From Deltaproteobacteria bacterium (lineage in GTDB: Bacteria > Myxococcota > Kuafuiibacteriia > Kuafuiibacteriales > Kuafuiibacteriaceae), in contig JAVJQW010000017.1 of assembly GCA_040218735.1 (NCBI GenBank), positions 64,001 through 128,000 on the forward strand: a stretch of 64,000 bases of DNA. The letters are read 5' to 3'. Positions 2,060 through 46,084 of this stretch are shown here, piece by piece. Position 1 is the stretch's first letter, and every line of letters starts with the position of its first letter. The notes beneath the pieces are model-generated. The model saw only the letters and a program-made list of their open reading frames with translations, was not told where the DNA came from and searched no databases. The position numbers were made by a program, and so were the translations under genes.

Positions 2060-5000
2060 CTAGACGATCGGGACGCAGCGGCAGTCTGCGAAGTCACACG
2101 TCTCGTTCGGCGCACAGCCGCCGCAGTCCGCGGGACAGACACACTGGCACGAGTTGTTCGGGTCGCAGACCTCGTTGTTCTCACACGCCGAGTCACACGT
2201 CGGATCGCACTCGCAGGTGCAGGACGACGCATTGCACATCGTGCCGTCCGGGCAACCGCCGCAGTCCGTCGGACAGATGCAGGAGCAGTCCATCGTCGGG
2301 TCGCAGACCGACAGGCCCGGGCAGCTGTCGTTGCACGTCGGGTCGCAGGTGCAATCGCAGGTCGACGAGTTGCAGATCGTGTTGCCCTGGCAGGCGCCGC
2401 CGCAGTCGGTCGGGCACTCGCAGTTACACGTCGTGCTGTTGCAATTCAGGTTGCCGGTGCACTGGCCGCCGCACGTCGGGTCGCACTCACACGTGCACGT
2501 GCCCTGGTTGCAGACCGTCCCGTTGCCGCAGGCGCCGCCGCAGTCCGGCGCGCACTCGCAGGCACAGGTGTTCGGGTTGCAGACCTCGTTCGGGCCGCAG
2601 TTACCGTTGCAGTCCGGCGCGCACACGCAGTTGCAGTCCGCGTCGCACTCCTGGTTCGCGCCGCAGGCGTTGCAGATCGCCTGGTCGCAGACGCAGATAC
2701 CGAGCTGCGGATCGCAGTTCTGACCGACCTGACACGGCCCGCACGGATCGTCCGGCGGCTGCCAGTTCCGGTAGCTGATGACGACGAGGTCACCCTGCGC
2801 CGGGCGGAAGTTGAAGCCGCGGAAGAAGATCGAGTTCGACGCGGGGTCGTAGTCGAACCCGTTGTCGCGGTCACGCGGCACCGTCGTCACGGTCATCGAG
2901 CCCTGCGGCACCACACCCACGCGGATCGTCGAAGAGATCGGCGGACCGCTGAGCGTGTACTGCGAGGCGGCGCCCGCGACGGCGTCGATGATCGCCTGCA
3001 GCGCCTGGCCCGGCGAGTTGTTGCACGGCGAGTAGGACGCGCCCATCGTCGCCTGCACCACGTCGAGGTAGCCGCGCCCCGGCTCGTTCGCCGGCTGGTC
3101 GAGCGGACCGCCGCAGCCGTAGCCCGTGCACACCGTGGGCGTGCCGACCGGGATGACCTGCGCGAACGCGACACCATTGTTGTTGGTGATCGTGTTGATG
3201 TACGGCGTGAGGAGCGTGTCGATGCAGTTCTGCTGCGCCGTGTTCGGGACCGTCGAGCACGTGTTGTTGTTGTTCGTGACGTAGTAGTCGCCGACGCCGG
3301 TGTTGCAGGTCGGGTTGTAGCCGAAGCAGTTCTGCGCCGACTGCATCGTCAGCTCCTGCGGGTACTCGTCCGAGATGTAGACCACCGCGAGCACCGCGTC
3401 GGAGCGCAGGCGGCGCGGTTGCTCCACACCCGCCGCGGAACGCGGGAGCGCCTTGGCGATCGCGTTGTCCGCCGCCTCGAGCCCGAACTCACAGCCGTCG
3501 GATCCCGACGTGTCCTGCAGGTAGCTGGCGAACAGGTTCGGGTCGCGCACGAAGCCGGCGCCCCGGAGGTCACCGCCGTTGCCGGCGCCCTGGTTGTAGT
3601 CGTTCTCGCTGTGCGGGACGACGCCCATGCGGAAGTCGACGTTGTTCGCGGAGAGCGCCGCGACGATCGAGTTCGCCGCGGTGAAGATACGACCGCGGTC
3701 GTCGTCGGTGGAGCCCGAGATGTCCGCCATCCAGATGAAGTCCGCCACCGACTGACCGGCCGCGGTGAACGGGTCGCAGTCCTTGTCGCGCTCGGCGTTC
3801 GCGAGCGCGAGCGCGGTGCCGTTGGTGAGGTCCTGGATGAAGATCGCCGCGTTGTTCGTGACGTCGTCGTAGGTCGTGCGGTCCATCCCGCCGACCACGA
3901 CGATCAGCTCCTGCGGCATCGAGCGCAGCAGGACTTGGTACGTGAACGTGTGTTGGTTCGTCGGCGCGCCGGTCGCCGTCGGCAGCCCCGTGAACGACGC
4001 CCCGGGCAGCCCCGTGAACATGCGCACCATCGCGTTGCGCACCTGCGCCGCGTTCTGCGTGCCCGTCGTGACGGAGAGGTCGACGACGTTCGACACGTTC
4101 GTGTCGTAGCCGTCGTGCGACGTGATGATGCGCCCGGAGATCCGCTGCGCGTAGGAGAGGTTCTCGGCGCCGGCCGCCGCCTGGAGCTGCGACTCGATGG
4201 CGGCGGACTGCGCCTGAATCGTCGCCGCGCCCGCGAGGAGCGGCATCCGCAGCACGAAGCCCGAGATGTTCGCCGTGGTGTCGTCCACCGCGGCGACGTC
4301 GACGTTTGCGCTCGCCGGCGCGGTCGTGATCGCGGAGTACGTGAACGACAGCTCGGACGCGAGCGTCCACGAGGAGCCGACGTCGAAGTTCACCTGCTTG
4401 AGGTTCGCCGTCGAGCAGATCGCGTTGATGCCCGGCGCACTTCCGGCCGGCGGATCGTTCGGGTCGAGCGGATCGAAGCCGGCGAGGACCTCGTCGCCGT
4501 CGCTGATCATGTCGTTGTCGGTGTCGTCGTCGTTCGGATCGGTCTCACCGAGGCCCGGCTCGAAGAGGCCGTTCATGTTGCCGTCTTCGACGCCGTCCGC
4601 GAGGCCGTCGCCGTCGGTGTCCATGTCGAGCGGGTCCGTGACCGTGGTCGGGTCCTGGTCGAACGGCACGCCCATGCACGCGCTGCCCGGCACGCCCATC
4701 ACGACGCCGAGCTCGACGCCGTCGGAGACGCCGTCACCGTCGGTGTCGGGCACCAGCGGGCTCGTCATGTAGACGTTGAGCTCGTCGCCGTCGGAGAGCC
4801 CGTCGCAATCCGTGTCGGGATCGAGCGGGTTCGTCTCGAACACCTCGGTCATGCCGTTGTGGTTGGTGTCCTCTTCGCCGTCGCCGAGTGTGTCGCCGTC
4901 AGTGTCGACGACGAGCGGATCCGTCTCCGTCGGCTCGCGCATGCCGTTGCGGTTGGTGTCTTCGAGGCCGTCGGAGATGAGATCGCCGTCGGTGTCGCGC

Positions 5001-5838: not shown

Positions 5839-7224
5839 CTAACGGGGGGGCGCGGGTGCCGCGGGTGCGACCTGGGGCTCGATCCGACGACTCGCGTCCC
5901 GGACGAGGCGCTCCGCCTCGGTCTTGCGGGTGAAACCAGGTACCCGGCTCGCACGATCCGCGAGACTCACACACACCTCGTACCGGCGCTGATCGCGCTC
6001 GAAGTAGGCCCAGCGGAGCAGGACTTCACCTTCGCTCGGCGTCCCACGGACCCGCTGCGTCGCCCGTCCGAAGATGCGGCGGGCGCTGTCGTACTGCTTG
6101 CGTGCAATCTCCTGCTCGGCGGCCTTCACCATCGCGGAGGCGAGGTTGGCGGCGCGTTGCGCCTCGGAGAGCCCGTCGTCGAGGGTCGCCGAGGCCCGGA
6201 GCTCCTTGTCCGCCTGGGCGCGAACCTCGGCCTTCGACGCGACCTTCGCCTCGGCGGGCGCCTCGGCGACCGGCGCCTCGTCGACCGACGGCGCCTCCTC
6301 GAAGCGCCGCTTGGCCCCGAGCGAGCGCACCGAGGGCTTCGCGGGGGTCGGCGTCGACGTCGGTCGTTTGGCGTCCGCGGTGTCCGCGGCGTCCAGCTTG
6401 GTCACCGCCTGGCGGGTCGACTCCCTCGCGATCGCGCCTTCGTCGGCGGGCGTCGCGGCCGACGGGCCGGCGGCCCCGCCGATCGGCAGGTCGGGCACGT
6501 CGGACGGGTCGGGCGCAGCGGCGCCGCCGCTCGCGGACCCGGTCGCGGGCGCCCGAGCGCTCTTCTTGGCCAACGCATCGAACGACGGGCTAGGCGGCGG
6601 CGGCGGCGGCGGGGGCTTGCGGGCCGCGCGCGCGCGTCGGCGCTTCGGCGTGCGGCGCGCCTCGTCCTCGCGGTCCCCGTCGATGTCGTCGGCGCGTTCG
6701 AAGCCGTCGCGCTCGAGCTTGGCCTTGTCGCCGAACGCCAACGCCTCCTCGGCTTCCTCGACGGGCTTCGGCTCGGGCGCCGGATCCTGCGCGGGGGCGT
6801 CTGCCGAGCGCGCCGACGCCGTGACGCCGGGCGGGATCGCCTCGGTCGTCGTCTGCGGCTCGGCCATGAAGCTGGTGACGTTCACGCTGACCACGGCGAC
6901 GACGGCGAGCGACGCCGCGGCGGCCAGGCCGAAGGCGGGGGTCAGGAGCAACTTGCGGAAGCGACCGAAGAACGACGACGCCTCGCGCTCCTCCTGGACG
7001 GCCTCGGCGGTCTGGCGAGCCGTGGCGAGGATCAGCGCGTCCAGGTGTTTCGACGGCTCCTCGTCCTCGAGCTCGCGCATGACGCCGAGCGTCTCCTCGA
7101 GCCCCTCCACCTGAGCGGACAGCGCGGCGTCCTCGGACATCGCCTGCTCGAAAGCACGCGCGTCCTCCTCGGACATCTCGTCGAACAGGTAGTCGACGAG
7201 CTGGCTGTCATCGTAACGGCTCAC
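5839..7224 (-). CDS. Membrane anti-sigma factor with C-terminal TPR-like domain
   Basis: N-terminal ASD-like helices (LVDYLFDEMS...), one TM helix, low-complexity linker, helical C-terminus; directly downstream of an ECF sigma gene. Confidence 0.75.
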   Translation of the reverse strand: MSRYDDSQLVDYLFDEMSEEDARAFEQAMSEDAALSAQVEGLEETLGVMRELEDEEPSKHLDALILATARQTAEAVQEEREASSFFGRFRKLLLTPAFGLAAAASLAVVAVVSVNVTSFMAEPQTTTEAIPPGVTASARSADAPAQDPAPEPKPVEEAEEALAFGDKAKLERDGFERADDIDGDREDEARRTPKRRRARAARKPPPPPPPPSPSFDALAKKSARAPATGSASGGAAAPDPSDVPDLPIGGAAGPSAATPADEGAIARESTRQAVTKLDAADTADAKRPTSTPTPAKPSVRSLGAKRRFEEAPSVDEAPVAEAPAEAKVASKAEVRAQADKELRASATLDDGLSEAQRAANLASAMVKAAEQEIARKQYDSARRIFGRATQRVRGTPSEGEVLLRWAYFERDQRRYEVCVSLADRASRVPGFTRKTEAERLVRDASRRIEPQVAPAAPAPPR

Positions 7225-7227
7225 GGC

Positions 7228-7800
7228 TCAATCCTCTTTCGTCACACCCTGGGTCTTCAGATGTTTACGCAAGTGTTCCAACGCGTAACGCATCCGACTC
7301 TTCACTGTGTTCTCCGGCACGCCTACGGCGTCCGCGATCTCCTTGAACGCCATCCCGGCCTGCTCGCGCATCACGAACACCTCGCGCTGCTCATCGGAGA
7401 GCGACGCGATGGCGTCGGTCAGACGCTTCCGAAGACGGATGCTCTCTGCGCCGCGATCGGTCGTGACGGAATCTTCGTCCGCCATCCGGTCACCGAGCGT
7501 CGAGCCGCCCTCTTCTCCTTCCTTCAACGGTTGGTCGAGCGATGCGGTCTTGCGATAACTCGCCTTTCTGATCGCATCGATGCAGTGGTTCCTCGCAATC
7601 GTATAGAGCCACGTCGTGAACTTGGCCTGTCTTTCCCAGTCCTTGGCCGATCGGCAGACGCGCAGGAAGACCTCCTGCATCGCGTCTTCGGCCGCCGCGG
7701 GATTCCCGACCATCTTGAGACAGAAGTTGTAGACGGGGCGCCGGTGCCGCTCCAGGAGCTTCTCGAACGCCCGCGCGTCGCCCTTCTTGAAGGCGGTCAT
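7228..7800 (-). CDS. ECF RNA polymerase sigma factor (start uncertain; frame is open further upstream)
   Basis: Region 2 AEDAMQEVF / FTTWLYTIARNHCID; region 4 EIADAVGVPENTVKSRMRYA. Confidence 0.9.
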   Translation of the reverse strand: MTAFKKGDARAFEKLLERHRRPVYNFCLKMVGNPAAAEDAMQEVFLRVCRSAKDWERQAKFTTWLYTIARNHCIDAIRKASYRKTASLDQPLKEGEEGGSTLGDRMADEDSVTTDRGAESIRLRKRLTDAIASLSDEQREVFVMREQAGMAFKEIADAVGVPENTVKSRMRYALEHLRKHLKTQGVTKED

Positions 7801-18334: not shown

Positions 18335-18967
18335 GTGGGGCCCCGAGAGGGAGTGGGATCGGAGGGCGTCAGCGTCGAGCGACGGCTCCTCCGCATCGTG
18401 CGGCGAGAACCGGCATCGCCGGGGGCCGTGCGGCGCGAAGGGCGAGCGATCGTCAACGAGATCTTCTTTGCGGTGCGGTGGATGGTTCGATCGAAGCTAC
18501 GCGTCTTTCGAACGCAGGCGATGGACGGGATGTCCGAGGAGGACCTCGTTTCCGAGATCGTCCTTGCGCTGATCGACGACGACTGCCGCGCGCTCGAGAA
18601 GTTCGATCCCGAGCGCGGCTCGTTGCGTTCGTTCGTCGCGACGTTCGCCGAGTGGAGGTGCGCCGACATCCACCGCCGCCACAGTCGGCGAGGGGATTTC
18701 GCGGAGCTCGAGAGTGCGCCCGAGCCTCGCGACCCGGCTTACAGCCCGGAGGATTTCGTGCGCGGTCGTCAGGCCGAGCGCGCCGTTCGCAAGCACGTCC
18801 TCTCGAACCTCTCCGCAAACGAACGGCTCGCCTTTGCCCGGTACTACGACGACGAGCTCCCGGGGCCAGAGTTCGCGCGAACGATGGCGTGGAGCCCTGC
18901 TCAGGTCTACCGGTTCACCTATCGCGTCCGGACGCTCGCACGCGCCTTCTTGAGGGACGACGCATGA
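18335..18967 (+). CDS. ECF-like sigma-70 factor (start approximate)
   Basis: Region 2 EDLVSEIVLAL...KFDPERGSLRSFV; region 4 helix-turn-helix; ATGA overlap with next gene. Confidence 0.8.
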   Translation: MGPREGVGSEGVSVERRLLRIVRREPASPGAVRREGRAIVNEIFFAVRWMVRSKLRVFRTQAMDGMSEEDLVSEIVLALIDDDCRALEKFDPERGSLRSFVATFAEWRCADIHRRHSRRGDFAELESAPEPRDPAYSPEDFVRGRQAERAVRKHVLSNLSANERLAFARYYDDELPGPEFARTMAWSPAQVYRFTYRVRTLARAFLRDDA

Positions 18968-21900
18968 GCAACGAACGGTCGGACCTCGAGCTGGACGCGC
19001 TGCTTCGCGAGACCCCCACGACGTCGGCGGTGTGCCTCGACGAGGCCGGCCCCGACTTCGACGCGATCGCGGCGAGGCACGAAGGCTCGCTCTCCCCCGA
19101 AGCGACGGAGACGCTGAGCGCCCACCTTCGAGACTGCCGGCTCTGCCGAGAGCTCGATCTGCAGTTCGCGGAGCTGACCGCGTCCGACCCGCTCGCCGAC
19201 GTCGACCCGGCGACGATCGACCGCGTGACGGAGGCCGTGGACCGACGCTTCGGGAGCCACGAGGACGTCGTGCAGCAGCTCGCGTCGCGCCCGCCACGCG
19301 CGCGTCCGCGGTGGCGGCACGCCATCGCCGCGGCCGTCGCCGCGGCGCTCGTCCTCTGCACCGTCACCTTCGTCTTTCTCCCCTCGCCCCCGGCCTACGA
19401 GATCCGCGTCGCGACGCGTGGACGACCGCTGGCCACCAGACGATCGCAGAGCGATGCGGCGGGGCCCCGTGACTCGGGGAAGTACGGGCCGCAGAGCATC
19501 CTGGCGTACGACGTCACGGTGTCGATGCCGCCCGGCGCGGCGGAGCCGGTCCTCCAAGTCTACGTCGAAGGGATCGACGGCCGGCTCACACGCGTCACGC
19601 CCTCGATCCAAACGAAGCTCGAGCGCGACGAAGTTCGCTACGTCGTCGAAGGTCGAGGCAGCGACTTCTTCGGTGAAGGCGCGGGTACCCGCTCCCTTTG
19701 GTTTGGAGTCGCGCCGTCGCCCGGTGCGTTCGGTGCGGTCGACGGCCAACGTCCCGATGCGCCGGGTTCCGACGACATTACATGGGCGCGTGTCGAAGCC
19801 GAGTACGTCATCGCCGCCGCGGTCGCGCCGCCGGAAGCCGCGCTGTTCGGGGCGCTGGCCACGGGTTGGTTCGCCGGAGCGCAGACGATGTTCTTCGACG
19901 CGACGCACCGACCTCGCGTTCGGCTCTCGGGTCGCGGCGCGTGGACCGTCAGCGTCGAGGACGACCGCGGAACACACGAGCTCGCGCGCGAGACGCTAGA
20001 CCGCTTGGACGATGCTCGGCACGTGGTCCTCGACCTCCCCTGGGTTGCGCCGCGCCGGGGGACACTGATCGCGGCGGCCGACGGCGTGGAGCGCCGACGT
20101 TGGGCGATCGTCTGGAACCCACTCGAACATCCTGACTTCGCGGGTCGATTCGAACCGCTCTACGCACGCGTGGACGAGGGTCGCGCGGCGTTTCGCGCGG
20201 GTCGTCGCGGCGACGCGGAGCGAGCCTGGCGGCGAGCCATCGAGTTGGCCGAAGCGGCGGGTGTCCTCAGCGAGGCGTCCCGACGCCGATCCGCGCTCGC
20301 GTACGTCGCGCTGAGCGACGATCGATTCGACGAAGCGCTGCGACTCCTCGAGGCGGCGCGCGCGGACGCCCGTAAGCTCGACTCGTCGAAGCTGTCCGCG
20401 GAAGCCGACTACTACGAAGCGCTCGTACACCTCGAACGGCGCGGCAACGGGGCGTTCGTCGCAGCCGAGCGATTGCTGCAGGCCGCCATCAGCTTTGCGG
20501 AGTACGAAGGCGACACGCGCCATCTGCAGCAGATCGTACAACCGCTCGTGACGCTCTGGTCGGAGTACGGGCGCGCGGCCGAGGCGGTGCGTTTGCTTCG
20601 ACGACACCCGCCACCGCCGGACGCAGACGACGTCGCCCGCGGACACTACTTCGGGAACCTCGCCGGCGCGCTGTACCACGCACACCGCACGGGCCAAATG
20701 ACGGTGGCGCGCGAGACGCTCCACGGCGCAGCGCAACGCGCGCTCCGCCACTTTCAGGCCAGCGGAACGAAGCAGTTCGAGGCGAACGTTCGCGCGCTCA
20801 TCGCACGCGCCTCCCTCGACGCCGACGACGAAGCGACGGCGCGTGCTCAGGTCGACGCGCTCCTGGCGATGACGAACGACGAGCGGACCGAAGTGCGTTG
20901 GGAGGTCCGGATGCTCGATGCGGAGCTTGCGCTGGCCGAGGGACGGCTGGAGGAAGCAAGCGAACGTCTGCTTTCGATCGAAGCCAACGCGCTCGAAGAA
21001 CACGACGGCGACGACTCCCGAGTGGCGTGCGCCGCGCGCGCGTTGCTCGGGCGCGTGCACGAGGAGGCGGGGCGCGCGGAGCGAGCGCGCGCCGACTATC
21101 TCGCCGCCACCCGACGTCTGCGTGCGCTGCGCAGGACGCTGGTGAGCGCGCCGGCCCAGGCCTCGATGCTCGCCGATGAGGCCGACCTGCATCGACGAAC
21201 GTTGGGGGCGCTCCTCGACGCCGGCCTCGTGGACCAAGCCGTCGAGCACGCGAGTCAGCGCCGCGCGGAGGTCCTGGTCGGCCTGGCGGGCGAGGACGCG
21301 CATGTCGAGGCGATGGACCTCGCGGCGATACGATCCAGGCTGGGGGACCGACGCGCCCTCGTCATCGCAGCGCGATCACACCGCGAACCCTTGAGCTTCT
21401 GGATCTCGAACACACAGGTCGACGTCGCGCGCGGCGACGACGTGCTGAAGCAGTGGGAGGCACGCGCGGCGACGGTCGACCACATCTACATCTCGCCGGG
21501 TGGCGAGCGCTGGGCGTTCGAGCTCGCGGTGCCTCCGGGCGGTGCCACGGTTTCTTGGGTTCCACACGCGGGCGTCGTCGGACGGAAGCGGACGAGCGCG
21601 GCTTCGGGTGCCGTCGTCGTCGCGGACCCGAACCGTGACCTCGCCTTTGCCGAGCGTGAGGGGCGCTCGGTCGCGTCTCGACGCACGGACTCCAAGCTCT
21701 TGATCCACGAGGGGGCTACGCGAGCGGCCGTCCTCGACTCGCTCGGCACCGTACGACTGTTTCACTTTGCCGGGCACGGTCAGGTCGGGCGGAACGATCC
21801 CTGGAGCGCTCGCCTTCGACTGGCGGACGGTGACCTGACGATTCATGACATCTTCGAAGCGCGTCCCGACGGCATTCACTTGGCCGTGCTCATCGGCTGC

Positions 21901-22134
21901 AGCACGGGTGAAGCCCAACGCGAAGGCTCGGATGGGTTGCCTCAGGCGCTACTCACCGCCGGGGTGAGGACTGTCGTCGCCAGCGTCGATGGGCTGGATG
22001 ACACACCCGAGCTCGGGCGGTTCGTGGCGGCCTTCTACGCGGCGGGCGGCGAAGAGACCCCGGGGGAGGCGTTCCGGATCGCGGCGGCTGCATCGCCGGC
22101 GGGTCGGTCGTTTCGACTCTGGGGTGAGCCTTAA
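18964..22134 (+). CDS. Zinc anti-sigma (HxxxCxxC)-TM-TPR-CHAT caspase-like protease fusion
   Basis: HLRDCRLC; hydrophobic AIAAAVAAALVLCTVTFVFL; TPR-like helices; CHAT motifs VADPNRDLAFAERE, HFAGHG, LIGCSTG. Confidence 0.85.
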   Translation: MSNERSDLELDALLRETPTTSAVCLDEAGPDFDAIAARHEGSLSPEATETLSAHLRDCRLCRELDLQFAELTASDPLADVDPATIDRVTEAVDRRFGSHEDVVQQLASRPPRARPRWRHAIAAAVAAALVLCTVTFVFLPSPPAYEIRVATRGRPLATRRSQSDAAGPRDSGKYGPQSILAYDVTVSMPPGAAEPVLQVYVEGIDGRLTRVTPSIQTKLERDEVRYVVEGRGSDFFGEGAGTRSLWFGVAPSPGAFGAVDGQRPDAPGSDDITWARVEAEYVIAAAVAPPEAALFGALATGWFAGAQTMFFDATHRPRVRLSGRGAWTVSVEDDRGTHELARETLDRLDDARHVVLDLPWVAPRRGTLIAAADGVERRRWAIVWNPLEHPDFAGRFEPLYARVDEGRAAFRAGRRGDAERAWRRAIELAEAAGVLSEASRRRSALAYVALSDDRFDEALRLLEAARADARKLDSSKLSAEADYYEALVHLERRGNGAFVAAERLLQAAISFAEYEGDTRHLQQIVQPLVTLWSEYGRAAEAVRLLRRHPPPPDADDVARGHYFGNLAGALYHAHRTGQMTVARETLHGAAQRALRHFQASGTKQFEANVRALIARASLDADDEATARAQVDALLAMTNDERTEVRWEVRMLDAELALAEGRLEEASERLLSIEANALEEHDGDDSRVACAARALLGRVHEEAGRAERARADYLAATRRLRALRRTLVSAPAQASMLADEADLHRRTLGALLDAGLVDQAVEHASQRRAEVLVGLAGEDAHVEAMDLAAIRSRLGDRRALVIAARSHREPLSFWISNTQVDVARGDDVLKQWEARAATVDHIYISPGGERWAFELAVPPGGATVSWVPHAGVVGRKRTSAASGAVVVADPNRDLAFAEREGRSVASRRTDSKLLIHEGATRAAVLDSLGTVRLFHFAGHGQVGRNDPWSARLRLADGDLTIHDIFEARPDGIHLAVLIGCSTGEAQREGSDGLPQALLTAGVRTVVASVDGLDDTPELGRFVAAFYAAGGEETPGEAFRIAAAASPAGRSFRLWGEP

Positions 22135-22385
22135 TCGTCGCCTTCGCCGCGAACGTACGCGCCCAAGACGTCCGAACGCGCCCACGCCTCGGCCAAAAAT
22201 GCACGCGCGTGACTCAAGTCATGTGCGGCAAAAGTGACGTACGCGTTGCGCTCACTAACTGGACCTTCGGGCAGGTCATCGGTGGCGCACCGATGGGTTT
22301 CCGCGAGCGAGCGAATCGCGGCGAGATCAGCCGAGCGCGTGATTCTGAGAACCACGGCCCAAACCTCCCGACTTGCGATCACCAT
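22131..22385 (-). CDS. 84-aa protein resembling a stand-alone subtilase prodomain
   Basis: Shares LGAYVR and overall pattern with the N-terminus of the neighbouring S8 protease; stop overlaps the CHAT gene stop. Confidence 0.6.
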   Translation of the reverse strand: MVIASREVWAVVLRITRSADLAAIRSLAETHRCATDDLPEGPVSERNAYVTFAAHDLSHARAFLAEAWARSDVLGAYVRGEGDD

Positions 22386-22543
22386 CTTTCGTTTTACCTC
22401 TTGTTTCGACAGTTCGGCCCGCCGCCGGCGCTCCTTGAGCTTCTTCCTTCGAAACTATTCCTCCCTTTGAGGGTCGCGTCCAATGCACTACGCTTCGCGG
22501 CCCCGGGCCACCCACGCGGCCCACGGGACGAGCCACGCACTGT

Positions 22544-23764
22544 ATGCACGAACCACGAGTCCTCATCGCCCGGTTCACTCCATCGGCCGCTCGTAACGCG
22601 GCGAACGCTCTGGAGAGAGAACGCGCCTATCTCACAGCGTTGTTCCCGGAGCTCGACGCCACGTACTTCAACGTGAGCTCGCAGGATGATCGGCCGCATG
22701 AGTTAGCCAAGATATGCCGGTCGATTCACGGGTGCCTGGGTGCGTACGTGCGAAGTGCGCCGCGGCCGGCTTCGATGCCCATGCATCATCGTGATGCACA
22801 ACGGCACCTCGATGCCGCGCCCGGGCTCGGCGTGTCGTCTCTGTGGAAGGCACCCGGCGGCAACGGACAAGGCGTTCGCGTACTCATCTATGACTACGCG
22901 ATCGACGAGGACCACGTTTGTTTCCAGCACGGACTCACTTCGATCGACTCGGTCAAACGTTCCGATCCGAAGCTGCGCGATCACGGCACCGCCGTCGCGG
23001 GGGTCGTGGGCGCGAGGCAGGTGCCGAACGGTTCTCTGCCGCGCGGCGTTTCGGGGTGCGCTCCGGGCGCGTCGATGATCTTCTTCGCCGTCTCACGCGG
23101 ACGAATGCAGTGCAGCGACCTGTGGAAGGCCCACGACCAGCTCGAAGAGGGAGACATCCTCCTCCTCCCGCAGACCGCTCGACTCGATACGAACGTCGCG
23201 GGTGCGCCCACGTTCCCGTGGGTTCCTCTCGAGTGGTTTCCGGACATGCAGATACCGATCGAGGCGATGACGAAGAAGGGCATCATCGTGGTGCAAGCCG
23301 CCGGTAACGACGATGCCAACCTCGACGATCCCCTGTTCGACGCGCCACCGAAGCCCGGGCATTTTCCCAGCTGGCGCAACCCGTTCAGCGTCGCCCGCGG
23401 GAGCGGACCGAGCTCGATCATCGTGGGTGCTTCCCATGTCGACATTCAGCAGGGTCGGATGCCGTACTCCAACTTCGGTCGCTGCGTCGACGTGCAAGGC
23501 TGGGGTGAGAACGTCGTGACGTGCGGCTACGGTGACCTCGAGGACCCGGGCGATCCGCACTGCCGGTTCACCGCGGCGTTCTCCGGCACCTCGGCGGCGG
23601 CCGCGATGATCGCCGGCACGCTCGCCTGCTTGCAGGGCGTCCGAAAGGTCGACCCGAGTAAGGGGTACATCACCCCTGCGAATGCGCGCGCGGTCTTGCT
23701 GACGCACGCGACGAAGGCTCCCGCTTCTTACGAGCCGATCGGGGACCGGCCGGACTGGGGCTAG
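22544..23764 (+). CDS. S8 subtilisin-like serine protease, no signal peptide
   Basis: Triad YDYAID / HGTAVAG / SGTSAAA and oxyanion AAGN. Confidence 0.9.
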   Translation: MHEPRVLIARFTPSAARNAANALERERAYLTALFPELDATYFNVSSQDDRPHELAKICRSIHGCLGAYVRSAPRPASMPMHHRDAQRHLDAAPGLGVSSLWKAPGGNGQGVRVLIYDYAIDEDHVCFQHGLTSIDSVKRSDPKLRDHGTAVAGVVGARQVPNGSLPRGVSGCAPGASMIFFAVSRGRMQCSDLWKAHDQLEEGDILLLPQTARLDTNVAGAPTFPWVPLEWFPDMQIPIEAMTKKGIIVVQAAGNDDANLDDPLFDAPPKPGHFPSWRNPFSVARGSGPSSIIVGASHVDIQQGRMPYSNFGRCVDVQGWGENVVTCGYGDLEDPGDPHCRFTAAFSGTSAAAAMIAGTLACLQGVRKVDPSKGYITPANARAVLLTHATKAPASYEPIGDRPDWG

Positions 23765-25043
23765 CCTCTCCCAAGAACGGCGACGCAACCCTGTACCCGC
23801 GGCGCGGGACGTTCTCGAACGGCATCGGGAAGCCCTCGCGCTCGATTCGCGCACGAATCTGCTGGAGTGCAGAGCGAATCGCGGTGTCGGTCACTACGCC
23901 GCAGGCGTCCTTGAGGGCGGCGACGCTCACGGGTTCACCTCGGGCCTGCAAGAGGCAGCAGAGGATGCGCCAGTTCGTGCCTCGGAAGGTCAGCACCCGA
24001 CCGCTGTCCGTGACGATACCGCGGCTGTTCGGGCGCGCGGGATCGGGCTGGAGGCCAGGCGAGCCCTCCGCCGATGGCGGGGTTGGCGTCGCTGGGTTCC
24101 CTTGGGGTCGCGGCGCCGGCGCCTCCAGCGGGCGCGCTCGTGCGGCTTGCGCGAGCGGGTCGTGGACTGTTTCGGCATCCAAGCGCTTCCGTAGCTCGGA
24201 CGCGACGAGCTTGTGCGTCACGCTCGGAGCGACCAAGCGCAGCCGTCCGGCGTCGTGACGCAGCAGCCCACAGCGGAGCAGCGGCTGGATGGCCTCATCG
24301 GCGGGGTCACATTTTTCGGTCCCGTCGTCGAGGACCGAGACGAGCGCCCCGACGGACGCGCGTGCGTACTCGAACACCCAGGCCACCGCGTCCGCGACGT
24401 AGCTCGTCGCGTTGAGTCGCAGGTAATTCGAGAGCTGATCGTAGTCGCCGAAGAGCTCGGATCGTCGTGATGCGCGCGCGAGGAGCGTGGGGTGACCGTC
24501 GGTCGCGCCGAACACGTTCGTCCACACGTCTTCGGAGAGCTTCCCCATCAGGTCGGTGAGCGCAGCTCGGGTGTCGTCCACCGTCGGGAGGTCCATGAAG
24601 TAGCGATCGAACTGGTGGATCTCGTTCTGCCGCCGATTCACCCAGTCGCGCTCGGGATCGTCGTTGCCGATCGCACGTTCGGCGACGTCGTCGCGTGACA
24701 AGCGCGAGGTCGCGACGAGGCGTGCGTCGGGGATCGAGCGCAGTGTCTTCTCGAGTCGAGCGTCGTAGAGGATGTCGAAGTCATCGACGAGGAGCGTGTC
24801 GGTGCCGCGTGCGCTTCGACACCATTCGGCGATCTCCTGTCCGGCTCCGGGGTCGCCACCCATCACGAGCGTCGCACCCTCCGAGCGCGACAGGGCGCGC
24901 AGGAGCGACGTCTTCCCCATACCCGGCGCGCCCTGCACGAAGTGACGACCGGGACGCAGCGCGGGCTCCGGTCCGTCCGATCGGGACCACGAAGGAGGCC
25001 GGAGCTTGGCGACGAGGGGTCGATGAAGGATCTCGAACTTCAT
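23670..25043 (-). CDS. STAND-like P-loop ATPase with C-terminal OmpR-type winged helix
   Basis: GAPGMGKT, LLVDDFD, GHP motif; C-terminal ENVPRRGYR. Confidence 0.8.
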   Translation of the reverse strand: MKFEILHRPLVAKLRPPSWSRSDGPEPALRPGRHFVQGAPGMGKTSLLRALSRSEGATLVMGGDPGAGQEIAEWCRSARGTDTLLVDDFDILYDARLEKTLRSIPDARLVATSRLSRDDVAERAIGNDDPERDWVNRRQNEIHQFDRYFMDLPTVDDTRAALTDLMGKLSEDVWTNVFGATDGHPTLLARASRRSELFGDYDQLSNYLRLNATSYVADAVAWVFEYARASVGALVSVLDDGTEKCDPADEAIQPLLRCGLLRHDAGRLRLVAPSVTHKLVASELRKRLDAETVHDPLAQAARARPLEAPAPRPQGNPATPTPPSAEGSPGLQPDPARPNSRGIVTDSGRVLTFRGTNWRILCCLLQARGEPVSVAALKDACGVVTDTAIRSALQQIRARIEREGFPMPFENVPRRGYRVASPFLGEASPSPAGPRSARKKREPSSRASARPRAHSQG

Positions 25044-44417: not shown

Positions 44418-45170
44418 CTACGATGCGAGGCGCGCGGACTCGGGGAGCGGCACGAAGTCCTCGCGCTCGAACGGAGGCGCCTCGAACGGCCAGGGGCCGG
44501 CCAGGTGGCAGAGCACGCGCTGCTGCACCGGAGCGGGCGGCGCGTTGATCGTGACCGCCTTCGCCTCGAGCTCCACCGGCTCGGCGAGGAGCCGGACGAG
44601 ATCCGGCGCGTAATAACGCGGGACGAACCCGATCCGCACCCCCTCGGCGCGCACCGCGACCGCGTTGGGATCGTCGGCGTTGGCAGCGTCGTGTTCGAGG
44701 GACAGCAACGTCCCCGGCGTGAGCGACGCCGCGAGCGACTGCGCATCGGCGGAGCGGTGCCGAAGGCCGTGCACGAAGAAGTCGATGTCGAAGAGACCGG
44801 TTTTGTCGTCGATCGGGAACGGGAACACTTCGAACGAATCGGTCGTCCGACGCCCGAGGCTGCGCGCGAGGATCGACAGCGGGTCCGCGTCGGCGCCTTC
44901 GAGATCGAGGCGCCGCAGGTACGCCGTGAACTCCTCGCGCGAGCGCGACATGATGCGGTTGTTGAACATCGGGAACAGCGTCGGCGCGCGATACACCCGA
45001 CTCGTGTCCGGGAAGCCGGGGAGCGGTCGCAGCCCGGCGCGCGCGTGGGCGTCCTCGTAGCCGCGCACGTAGAGGTACTCGAAGCCCCCTTCCCCGTGGC
45101 GAAGCCGCCCGATGGGGAACCATTGGCGGGATACGTGATCCTGCCAAGCGAGGAAGAGCGTCGTCACCAC
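44418..45170 (-). CDS. HipS/HipA-N-like + HIRAN domain protein
   Basis: N-terminal LFLAWQD...IGRL...FEYLY and LFPMFNNRI; HIRAN LEHDAANADDPNAVAV...IGFVPR. Confidence 0.8.
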   Translation of the reverse strand: MVTTLFLAWQDHVSRQWFPIGRLRHGEGGFEYLYVRGYEDAHARAGLRPLPGFPDTSRVYRAPTLFPMFNNRIMSRSREEFTAYLRRLDLEGADADPLSILARSLGRRTTDSFEVFPFPIDDKTGLFDIDFFVHGLRHRSADAQSLAASLTPGTLLSLEHDAANADDPNAVAVRAEGVRIGFVPRYYAPDLVRLLAEPVELEAKAVTINAPPAPVQQRVLCHLAGPWPFEAPPFEREDFVPLPESARLAS

Positions 45171-46084
45171 GCCGCTACGATCTCGCCGATGCGCCGCTGG
45201 TTCACGAGCACCATCCTAACAGCGAGCTCGCGATGAACGGGCGAAATCCGTTCCTCGGGCAGTCTTTCGAATAGATCGCGGACGTCGGCCTCGGTGACGG
45301 TGGCCAACCGAGCCCACCACGCGCGGGCCGCTTCGGGGCGAGCCGAGACCGCCGCCATGAACGCCTCCAGCGTCGTCAGGGGCTTCGTCGCCGCCCGGGA
45401 CGCGTAGAACGCCGAGCGCGCCCTCTCGACGTAGGACTCCACGGTCACCCGCGGATCGCCCCCCTCCACCCGCAGGCGCGCGCGGCGCTCGGGCTCGTTT
45501 CGGCCGAGGGACGAAGCGTGGTCGTAGGTTGGCGCGAGCGCCGGCGCCGAGGAGCGCATGGTGACCGCCCAGTTCTCGTGGTGGCGATCCGTGTTGCCGA
45601 TCAGCGCGTCGAGCATCACGTACCCCACCATCTGATCGGGCGCGGTCCACGGCTCGATCGGGGGCGTGTCCACCACGGTCGGTCCCGCCTCGAAGTGCAC
45701 GAGCGCCTCCATCACCGCCGGCACCGTGTGCTGCCCCACGTGGTAGCGCTCCTCCTGCGGGTAGTCGTGGTACAGCCCCATCAACAGCTCGTTGCCGTGG
45801 AAGAGGTGCTCACCCGGCGCCAGGAAGGACGGCGACACGATCCCCCACGTGCCCTCCAGCTCCGCGAGCTCGACGTCGGCGGCCGGGATGCCGATGCGGT
45901 GCGCGAGCTCGGCCGCGATCTTCTCGGACCAGTCTTCGTTTGCGCGCCCTCGCTTGAATAGAATCTTCTCGTCGTTCTCGTCGAAGTACCAAAACTTGAA
46001 CTTCGTCCCGAGCGTCTCGTCTTCGCGGCGCGCGTGCGGCGGGACGATCACGACGTCGAACGGCTCCACGACGCCGTGAATCAT
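45164..46084 (-). CDS. HipA-like Ser/Thr kinase (HipA_C)
   Basis: LGTKFK Gly-loop, LFK, EDWSE, DALIGNTDRHHENW, APTYDHASSLG. Confidence 0.88.
   Translation of the reverse strand: MIHGVVEPFDVVIVPPHARREDETLGTKFKFWYFDENDEKILFKRGRANEDWSEKIAAELAHRIGIPAADVELAELEGTWGIVSPSFLAPGEHLFHGNELLMGLYHDYPQEERYHVGQHTVPAVMEALVHFEAGPTVVDTPPIEPWTAPDQMVGYVMLDALIGNTDRHHENWAVTMRSSAPALAPTYDHASSLGRNEPERRARLRVEGGDPRVTVESYVERARSAFYASRAATKPLTTLEAFMAAVSARPEAARAWWARLATVTEADVRDLFERLPEERISPVHRELAVRMVLVNQRRIGEIVAAW

Follow-up and report, generated by a model that had tools for sequence, protein, structure and literature searches.

Stand-alone propeptide-like inhibitors of subtilases, such as POIA1, yeast IB2, Arabidopsis SPI-1, TgMIC5 and SUB1-ProM, are described in PMC6993865, and the excerpts of that source used here call protein protease inhibitors sparse in prokaryotes. 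In Aeromonas sobria, the protease ASP is propeptide-deficient and the product of ORF2, a gene adjoining asp, is needed for its maturation (PMC5638518, in excerpt). Here we report on a gene pair in a stretch of 64,000 nucleotides (nt) from a Deltaproteobacteria bacterium of the Myxococcota (assembly GCA_040218735.1, contig JAVJQW010000017.1, positions 64,001 to 128,000), the whole of which is called the window below. The pair consists of a small open reading frame (ORF) of 84 amino acids (aa) and, on the opposite strand, the gene of an S8 subtilase; the initial annotation took the small ORF for a stand-alone copy of the prodomain of that protease. In our view, the small ORF probably belongs, as a divergent member, to a still unnamed family of free propeptide paralogues in bacteria, and acts in trans as an inhibitor of the adjacent S8. 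This reading starts from the gene pairing and the intact catalytic triad, adds a predicted fold and a predicted docking, and draws on known S8 biology to infer processing, inhibition and purpose.

As far as the excerpts of PMC6993865 go, the I9 inhibitors of MEROPS (POIA1, the yeast peptidase B inhibitor and SPI-1), TgMIC5 and Plasmodium SUB1-ProM share with the small ORF a small separate gene, a propeptide fold and, as here, little sequence likeness to the propeptide of the target. SUB1-ProM also adjoins subtilase genes, as the free family does. All examples of these kinds named in the excerpts are eukaryotic, whereas the free family is bacterial and clearly paralogous, at the family level, to the cognate prodomain. 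Unlike I9 proteins, the free family has no Inhibitor_I9 match, and its members are putative inhibitors. The small ORF is probably a bacterial variant of this known kind of inhibitor. With ASP–ORF2, the locus shares a bacterial gene beside a subtilase, the C-terminus of ORF2 blocking the catalytic site in the described case (PMC5638518, in excerpt); ASP is secreted and has no propeptide, whereas the S8s treated here keep their prodomain and appear to lack a signal peptide.

The family was delimited through the relatives of the protease. The S8 alignment, made from 102 of the 120 homologues listed, was used to fetch genome stretches, and the best 80 of 535 confirmed stretches, which did not include close relatives of the window genome, were sampled as loci (numbered with L below). 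A profile built from 113 fused prodomains located free ORFs in 42 of these loci, and one further round brought the count to 46/80, in 45 genomes; the reversed-sequence control returned nothing below E 0.35. Pairs of a free prodomain-like ORF and an S8 gene occur in nine phyla, Myxococcota included. The free ORF lies upstream of S8 on the same strand in 38 of the 46 cases, upstream and divergent in three (from two genomes), downstream on the same strand in three and downstream and convergent in two, so the divergent transcription that had been put forward as a feature of the pair does not characterize the family.

Compared as profiles, the free family and the fused S8 prodomains match with an hhalign probability of 98.9% (E 3e-17). 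Like a propeptide released by cleavage, family proteins have their C-terminus immediately behind the last strand: nine residues separate the conserved Tyr from the C-terminus in 143 of 191 members, Pro is the last residue in 145 of 192, and the conserved tail reads A-Y-x-K-P-x-x-E-x-P. In a quick tree on few columns, built from 46 free proteins together with their 46 cognate prodomains (L073 dropped as a duplicate, the window pair added), 42 of the 46 free proteins cluster apart from the prodomains (Shimodaira–Hasegawa-like approximate likelihood ratio test, 89), and this grouping suggests an old duplication. The overall similarity of cognate pairs (residual 10.8, reached in 0/20000 permutations; median rank 13.5/46) was not counted as co-evolution since kinship confounds it.

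The family profile matches 1569 representatives of clusters at 50% identity (E <=0.001), an upper bound because it also matches fused prodomains. Among the best 150 of these, 149 are 80–207 aa long and one is a repeat artefact; the top clusters are labelled “hypothetical protein” in the Atlas (720 members). When 43 members were searched against Pfam and NCBIfam, nothing better than E 0.0017 was found and none came near a curated cut-off: Inhibitor_I9, ORF_2_N and PF22148 were matched by none of the 43 and PF16361 by one (E 0.0017). An Atlas feature row at 0.82 with ORF_2_N in 16% of its members is a lead only. The family profile (alignment A2) matched unrelated chains only among PDB sequences, and a literature search, in which few subscription papers were covered, found no description of the family. 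Hydrophobic N-terminal extensions, some with a lipobox, are present in 12/149 free proteins. Separately, signal- or lipoprotein-like N-termini were seen on free prodomains at L051, L062, L023 and L068 and on P0128, P0129, P0157, P0177, P0202, P0243 and P0272; where visible, the S8 partners of such proteins lack them.

The S8 ORF of the window (22544–23764, plus strand, 406 aa) matches Pfam PF00082 (E 1.7e-20), with the triad D117/H147/S350 and the oxyanion residue N255 intact and a subtilisin fold in the model. It is 30–38% identical to the subfamily loci, and phmmer against PDB sequences gave no match. Its own prodomain, compact and divergent, was found by the prodomain hidden Markov model (HMM; E 8e-4 in a search of 899 window ORFs) and by hhalign (probability 93%). 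A hydrophobic 12-mer above 2.0 stands at the N-terminus of just 2/80 S8 relatives, in both ahead of the probable Met; by hydropathy, this suggests that the S8s of this subfamily have no signal peptide, in line with the cytoplasmic protease first proposed. Yet in many of these S8s the tail bears a binding domain of extracellular type (tachylectin, FG-GAP, hemopexin, DUF5648), and the final site of action may lie inside or outside the cell.

The small ORF is predicted to have the ferredoxin-like fold expected of a propeptide. Single-sequence AlphaFold2 (AF2) modelling gave a predicted local distance difference test (pLDDT) of 79.5 and a predicted template modelling score of 0.70, with strands (E) and helices (H) at E8-15 H21-30 E33-37 E48-54 H57-68 E73-81; the Atlas model has a pLDDT of 0.77. 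In the AF2 model of S8, the prodomain shows the same order of elements (E5-11 H13-25 E28-32 E41-46 H51-60 E64-71) and is followed by a low-confidence linker at residues 75–77. Against the PDB, the small ORF resembles proteins of the generic ferredoxin-like type (Foldseek E 1.2e-3 at best; VIA matches at Z 7–9, the best at Z 9.0 with a root-mean-square deviation of 4.5 over 78 aligned residues). Among its Atlas structure rows, two are subtilase clusters with a Fervidolysin_NPro-like share, at template modelling (TM) scores of 0.70 and 0.65; the former is the best-TM row, and the other rows are ACT domains and anti-sigma proteins. Fervidolysin_NPro-like (PF22148) and Peptidase_S8_N (PF16361) are the nearest named Atlas structures for the small ORF and a canonical family member (TM 0.65–0.72); these prodomains normally occur fused. 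The Atlas feature search with the small ORF gave no usable match. The modelled fold fits a propeptide and, being a common one, is no proof of it.

The complex of the small ORF (alignment of 38 rows) with S8 residues 78–406 (102 rows) was modelled with ESMFold2. It scored 0.89 and the best of three controls 0.00, on a scale whose mark is reached by 116/157 solved complexes and 2/215 mismatched pairs; runs share at least 77% of contacts, and the partner pLDDT is at least 83. The modelled interface sets the sheet and residues 74–82 of the small ORF against S8 residues 184–194, 210–217, 232–238 and 269–274. From the positions in the S8 model, we take these segments to be the substrate strand and the beginnings of the two helices at the surface, together presumably the canonical propeptide site of subtilisins. 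Since complexes of subtilisin with its propeptide have already been solved, the pass is a likeness and no demonstration that the window copy binds.

Several results for the small ORF weigh against our reading. Its resemblance to the S8 prodomain is not significant from the two sequences: BLASTP gives E 0.22, and 5000 shuffles against S8 residues 1–80 give p 0.083 (local) and 0.02 (global). Three HMMs miss it (E 2; not listed at E <=2; E 1.4), hhalign finds a weak match to the family (probability 13.5%, E 0.002), and its glocal z against the free family is 0.6, with 98/400 shuffles as high. Its tail keeps A-Y, lacks both conserved prolines and falls one residue short of the modal length. The homologue search found a single relative, 99% identical, among two candidates. 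Among the PDB rows listed by Foldseek and VIA there is no subtilase propeptide, only ferredoxin, ACT, S6, NikR and BMC folds. In the complex, confident contacts stop at residue 82 of 84, and D83, D84 and the triad residues are not among them; the pass may also stem from likeness to solved subtilisin–propeptide structures and from family rows in the partner alignment.

Of these, the sequence scores and the fold matches are the ground on which the small ORF could be seen as a decayed remnant or an unrelated ferredoxin-fold (ACT-like) protein whose likeness to a prodomain is incidental, a view further fed by the longest branch in the tree (5.0) and by a codon model that does not call the small ORF as a gene. 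The codon-model miss is not specific, because the S8 and CHAT genes score low too; the rest of 18335–25043 is also low and the ATPase gene there was missed. The frame is open, its codon-position GC is typical (0.68/0.52/0.66), a Shine-Dalgarno-like site precedes it and the single-sequence fold is confident. The place of the family beside S8, the subtilase cluster at the top of the Atlas rows and the complex score against the three controls likewise speak for a true prodomain relative, and we consider a remnant or chance look-alike improbable. GTG 22355 is probably the true start, giving 74 aa, as judged from the GGGAGG 8 nt upstream and from the Atlas record, which begins at residue 11. No sigma-70 consensus promoter was found in the 158-nt intergenic region, and promoter and repeat scans gave no signal above chance.

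The layout first described was confirmed from the sequence: the ORF coordinates, the head-to-head orientation, the 158 nt from ATG to ATG and the LGAYVR identical in the small ORF and the S8 N-terminus. The small ORF is its own gene on the strand opposite S8 and is not cut from a precursor. Sharing a 6-mer occurred in 17/20000 shuffles against S8 residues 1–80 and in 48/20000 against the whole S8, and it is the sole unusual feature of the two-sequence comparison. At the DNA level, the small ORF and the S8 gene match over just 16 nt, which argues against recent duplication; the small ORF thus looks like an old paralogue of the prodomain and not a fresh copy. The parallel drawn by the initial annotation becomes credible at the family level, because the predicted topology is the same, free-prodomain genes form a family near S8 relatives and the complex model agrees. 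Neither Pfam, including its Inhibitor_I9 profile, nor NCBIfam nor PADLOC assigns the small ORF to a family, and no I9 propeptide match came from the profiles or stood among the Foldseek rows listed.

Compared with S8 prodomains, the small ORF reaches a glocal z of 3.3 (0/400 shuffles as high), and it aligns to the free family end to end and in register at 9–24% identity. The cognate S8 prodomain lacks K-P too. When the comparison is confined to ten columns at the last strand and tail, the small ORF scores best with its own S8 among 46 prodomains; over the whole domain the pair ranks 11. In the tree, the small ORF forms a long branch within the free group and is not sister to its own S8 prodomain: it is a free propeptide-like protein, as proposed, and the model docks it at the propeptide site, but the tree does not support its being a copy of the prodomain of its neighbour. 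Position, fold, length and register taken together make it likely that the small ORF is a highly derived member of the free-prodomain family.

We hypothesize the following course of events. As in known S8 biology, S8 would be made as a zymogen, here without a signal peptide; its own prodomain would fold it, be released by cleavage in the linker around residues 73–80 and eventually be degraded. The free paralogue would then take over the surface of the prodomain on mature S8, its sheet packing on residues 184–194 and 232–238, its last strand pairing with the substrate-binding strand 210–215 and its tail pointing at the cleft. The mature protease would stay blocked for as long as the inhibitor is neither diluted nor degraded and the protease is not released without it; because the inhibitor comes from its own gene, the cell would be able to maintain this block.

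Alternatively, the free protein could be an external folding chaperone like Aeromonas ORF2, folding S8 in trans and inhibiting it only transiently. ORF2 adjoins asp, is required for maturation and reaches the catalytic site with its C-terminus (PMC5638518, in excerpt), and the S8 prodomain of the window is compact and divergent. Against this, the cis-prodomain profile is matched by the window S8 and by all 80 relatives, while ASP is propeptide-deficient, and in 34/80 loci no free copy is detectable by HMM, an upper bound because copies as divergent as that of the window would be missed. We therefore regard a chaperone role as quite unlikely.

The same absences bear on an antitoxin or immunity role, in which S8 would be a self-toxic or delivered effector, freed when the free prodomain is destroyed, for example by the TPR-CHAT protease of the window under the control of its extracytoplasmic function (ECF) sigma factor. 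The order of genes in the window (sigma factor, CHAT, free prodomain, S8, ATPase with winged helix) would suit such a triggered switch, as would the island-like, low codon-model score of the block. The rarity of hydrophobic S8 N-termini and the many extracellular-type tails are further points for it. Hydrophobic N-terminal extensions are frequent in immunity proteins, and some free proteins carry them, as given above. For ECF54 sigma factors, which lack an anti-sigma factor and are mainly actinobacterial according to the excerpts of PMC8999054, regulation by neighbouring CHAT and subtilase proteins has been proposed there; the adjacency of ECF sigma factor, CHAT and subtilase in the window resembles ECF54 loci, as a lead only, and differs from them in the weak zf-HC2-like head and transmembrane helix of the CHAT protein.

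Against such a switch, a scan of 150 of 151 chosen neighbours of free-copy loci (proteins >900 aa and one other excluded) detected neither a CHAT protease nor an ECF sigma factor, and phmmer with the sigma factor, CHAT protein and ATPase of the window found no match in the 80 S8 loci: the sigma/CHAT/ATPase surroundings are not conserved with the S8–prodomain module. Moreover, a transmembrane helix precedes the CHAT domain, which probably faces outward; this argues against CHAT cutting a cytoplasmic inhibitor. By HMM, a free copy was undetected also in 4/4 plasmid loci, tblastn of a canonical family member against plasmids gave no match, and S8 keeps its own prodomain. Neither the toxin–antitoxin pair nor the regulated cleavage suggested at first thus finds support, and we give the antitoxin reading little credence. 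As a separate observation, plasmid locus L083 of B. thuringiensis holds at 3374–3607 a 77-aa hypothetical gene upstream of S8, ferredoxin-like by eye and without HMM match, which may be another highly divergent free prodomain.

PADLOC returned a generic subtilase match only and no ietA-type match for the window ATPase. IetAS is a subtilase toxin–antitoxin or conflict system. Like it and like S8-PTS (PMC9424270, in excerpt), the window has a small cluster of genes that includes an S8 peptidase, here adjoining an ATPase. S8-PTS requires, in the same excerpt, a BetaH toxin and an immunity gene; neither was seen in the window, and identity with S8-PTS was rejected. Caspase–subtilase–inhibitor operons reportedly exist in predatory bacteria; the literature search found no work on them.

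The S8 subfamily shows other small partners. A free copy of the C-terminal domain of S8 itself lies directly downstream of 19 of 48 tailed S8s (33–88% identical), including copies of 84–90 aa at L003, L006, L020, L026, L031, L049, L051-L053, L058, L061, L062 and L069 and further ones at L064, L067, L030 and L001; that of Haloferax (L081, 5548–5802) was judged by eye only. The 84-aa type has no Pfam match, and several loci hold free copies of both S8 ends. One may picture a widespread bacterial module in which a signal-less subtilase has free versions of its own domains on either side. The free prodomain (46/80 loci) would be an immunity protein or a brake that can be reset, the free binding-domain copy (19/48) a decoy or sensor, and in the window genome the whole would be wired to the sigma/CHAT/STAND cluster as a proteolytic switch; we consider this combination unlikely.

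Other genes recur near S8. RimK/MvdD-like ATP-grasp genes lie downstream of it in eight loci (L007, L008, L040, L042, L055, L063, L072/L073), with matches below curated cut-offs and often a second related ORF, and a link to peptide maturation is possible. Low-complexity ORFs of 87–101 aa follow the C-terminal-domain copy at L031 (11784–12056), L006, L014, L020, L061 and L069; their repeated D-x-G-G-x-P-like stretches could mark precursor peptides or substrates. In Calothrix (L043, 5643–12862), two S8 genes stand among several repeated small peptidoglycan-binding genes.

Coordinates in the window of the gene pair and its neighbours.
Feature	Coordinates	Strand	Basis
ECF-type sigma factor	18335..18967	plus	TIGR02937 above cut-off
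CHAT protein: weak zf-HC2-like N-terminus, transmembrane helix 121-139, TPR-like region, CHAT with His/Cys motifs	18964..22134	plus	
Small ORF, subtilase-propeptide-like, 84 aa from ATG	22131..22385	minus	Fold, weak family match, complex model
GGGAGG, putative Shine-Dalgarno-like site, 8 nt before GTG 22355	22364..22369	minus	Sequence; inference
Intergenic region, divergent, 158 nt	22386..22543		Sequence and promoter scan
N-terminal prodomain of S8 itself, about residues 1-72, without signal peptide	22544..22759	plus	Prodomain HMM, hhalign, AF2
S8 subtilase catalytic domain, without C-terminal extra domain	22775..23764	plus	Pfam PF00082, triad
STAND/AAA-like ATPase with C-terminal winged helix	23670..25043	minus	AAA_16 E 0.0014, Trans_reg_C E 0.007, both below cut-off

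The CHAT gene is convergent with the small ORF, their stop codons sharing TTAA at 22131–22134, and the ATPase gene, in whose sequence Walker A and B are seen, is convergent with S8. The ATPase ORF has a low-complexity tail and, running on the opposite strand, shares 95 nt (23670–23764) with the 3′ end of S8. The block at 18335–25043 has a low codon-model score, with GC slightly lower at 22–26 kb (0.65–0.66), like an acquired island. Orthologues of the CHAT protein were found at 98%, 85% and 78% identity, one of them labelled as a Deltaproteobacteria metagenome-assembled genome. Elsewhere in the window, a further ECF sigma factor, accompanied by an anti-sigma-like gene, was recognized from sequence only at 5842–7800 (minus), and two genes at 44421–46084 (minus) seem, by their N-terminal sequences, to resemble those of HIRAN proteins and HipA-like kinases.

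Most free propeptide inhibitors known so far are eukaryotic (PMC6993865), and our results indicate a large unannotated bacterial family, of up to 1569 clusters, tied to one uncharacterised subtilase subfamily; the main value of the finding lies in the family rather than in the single divergent copy of the window. If our reading is right, the family would show how bacteria restrain a signal-less subtilase once its own prodomain is gone, and would be a source of natural subtilase inhibitors.

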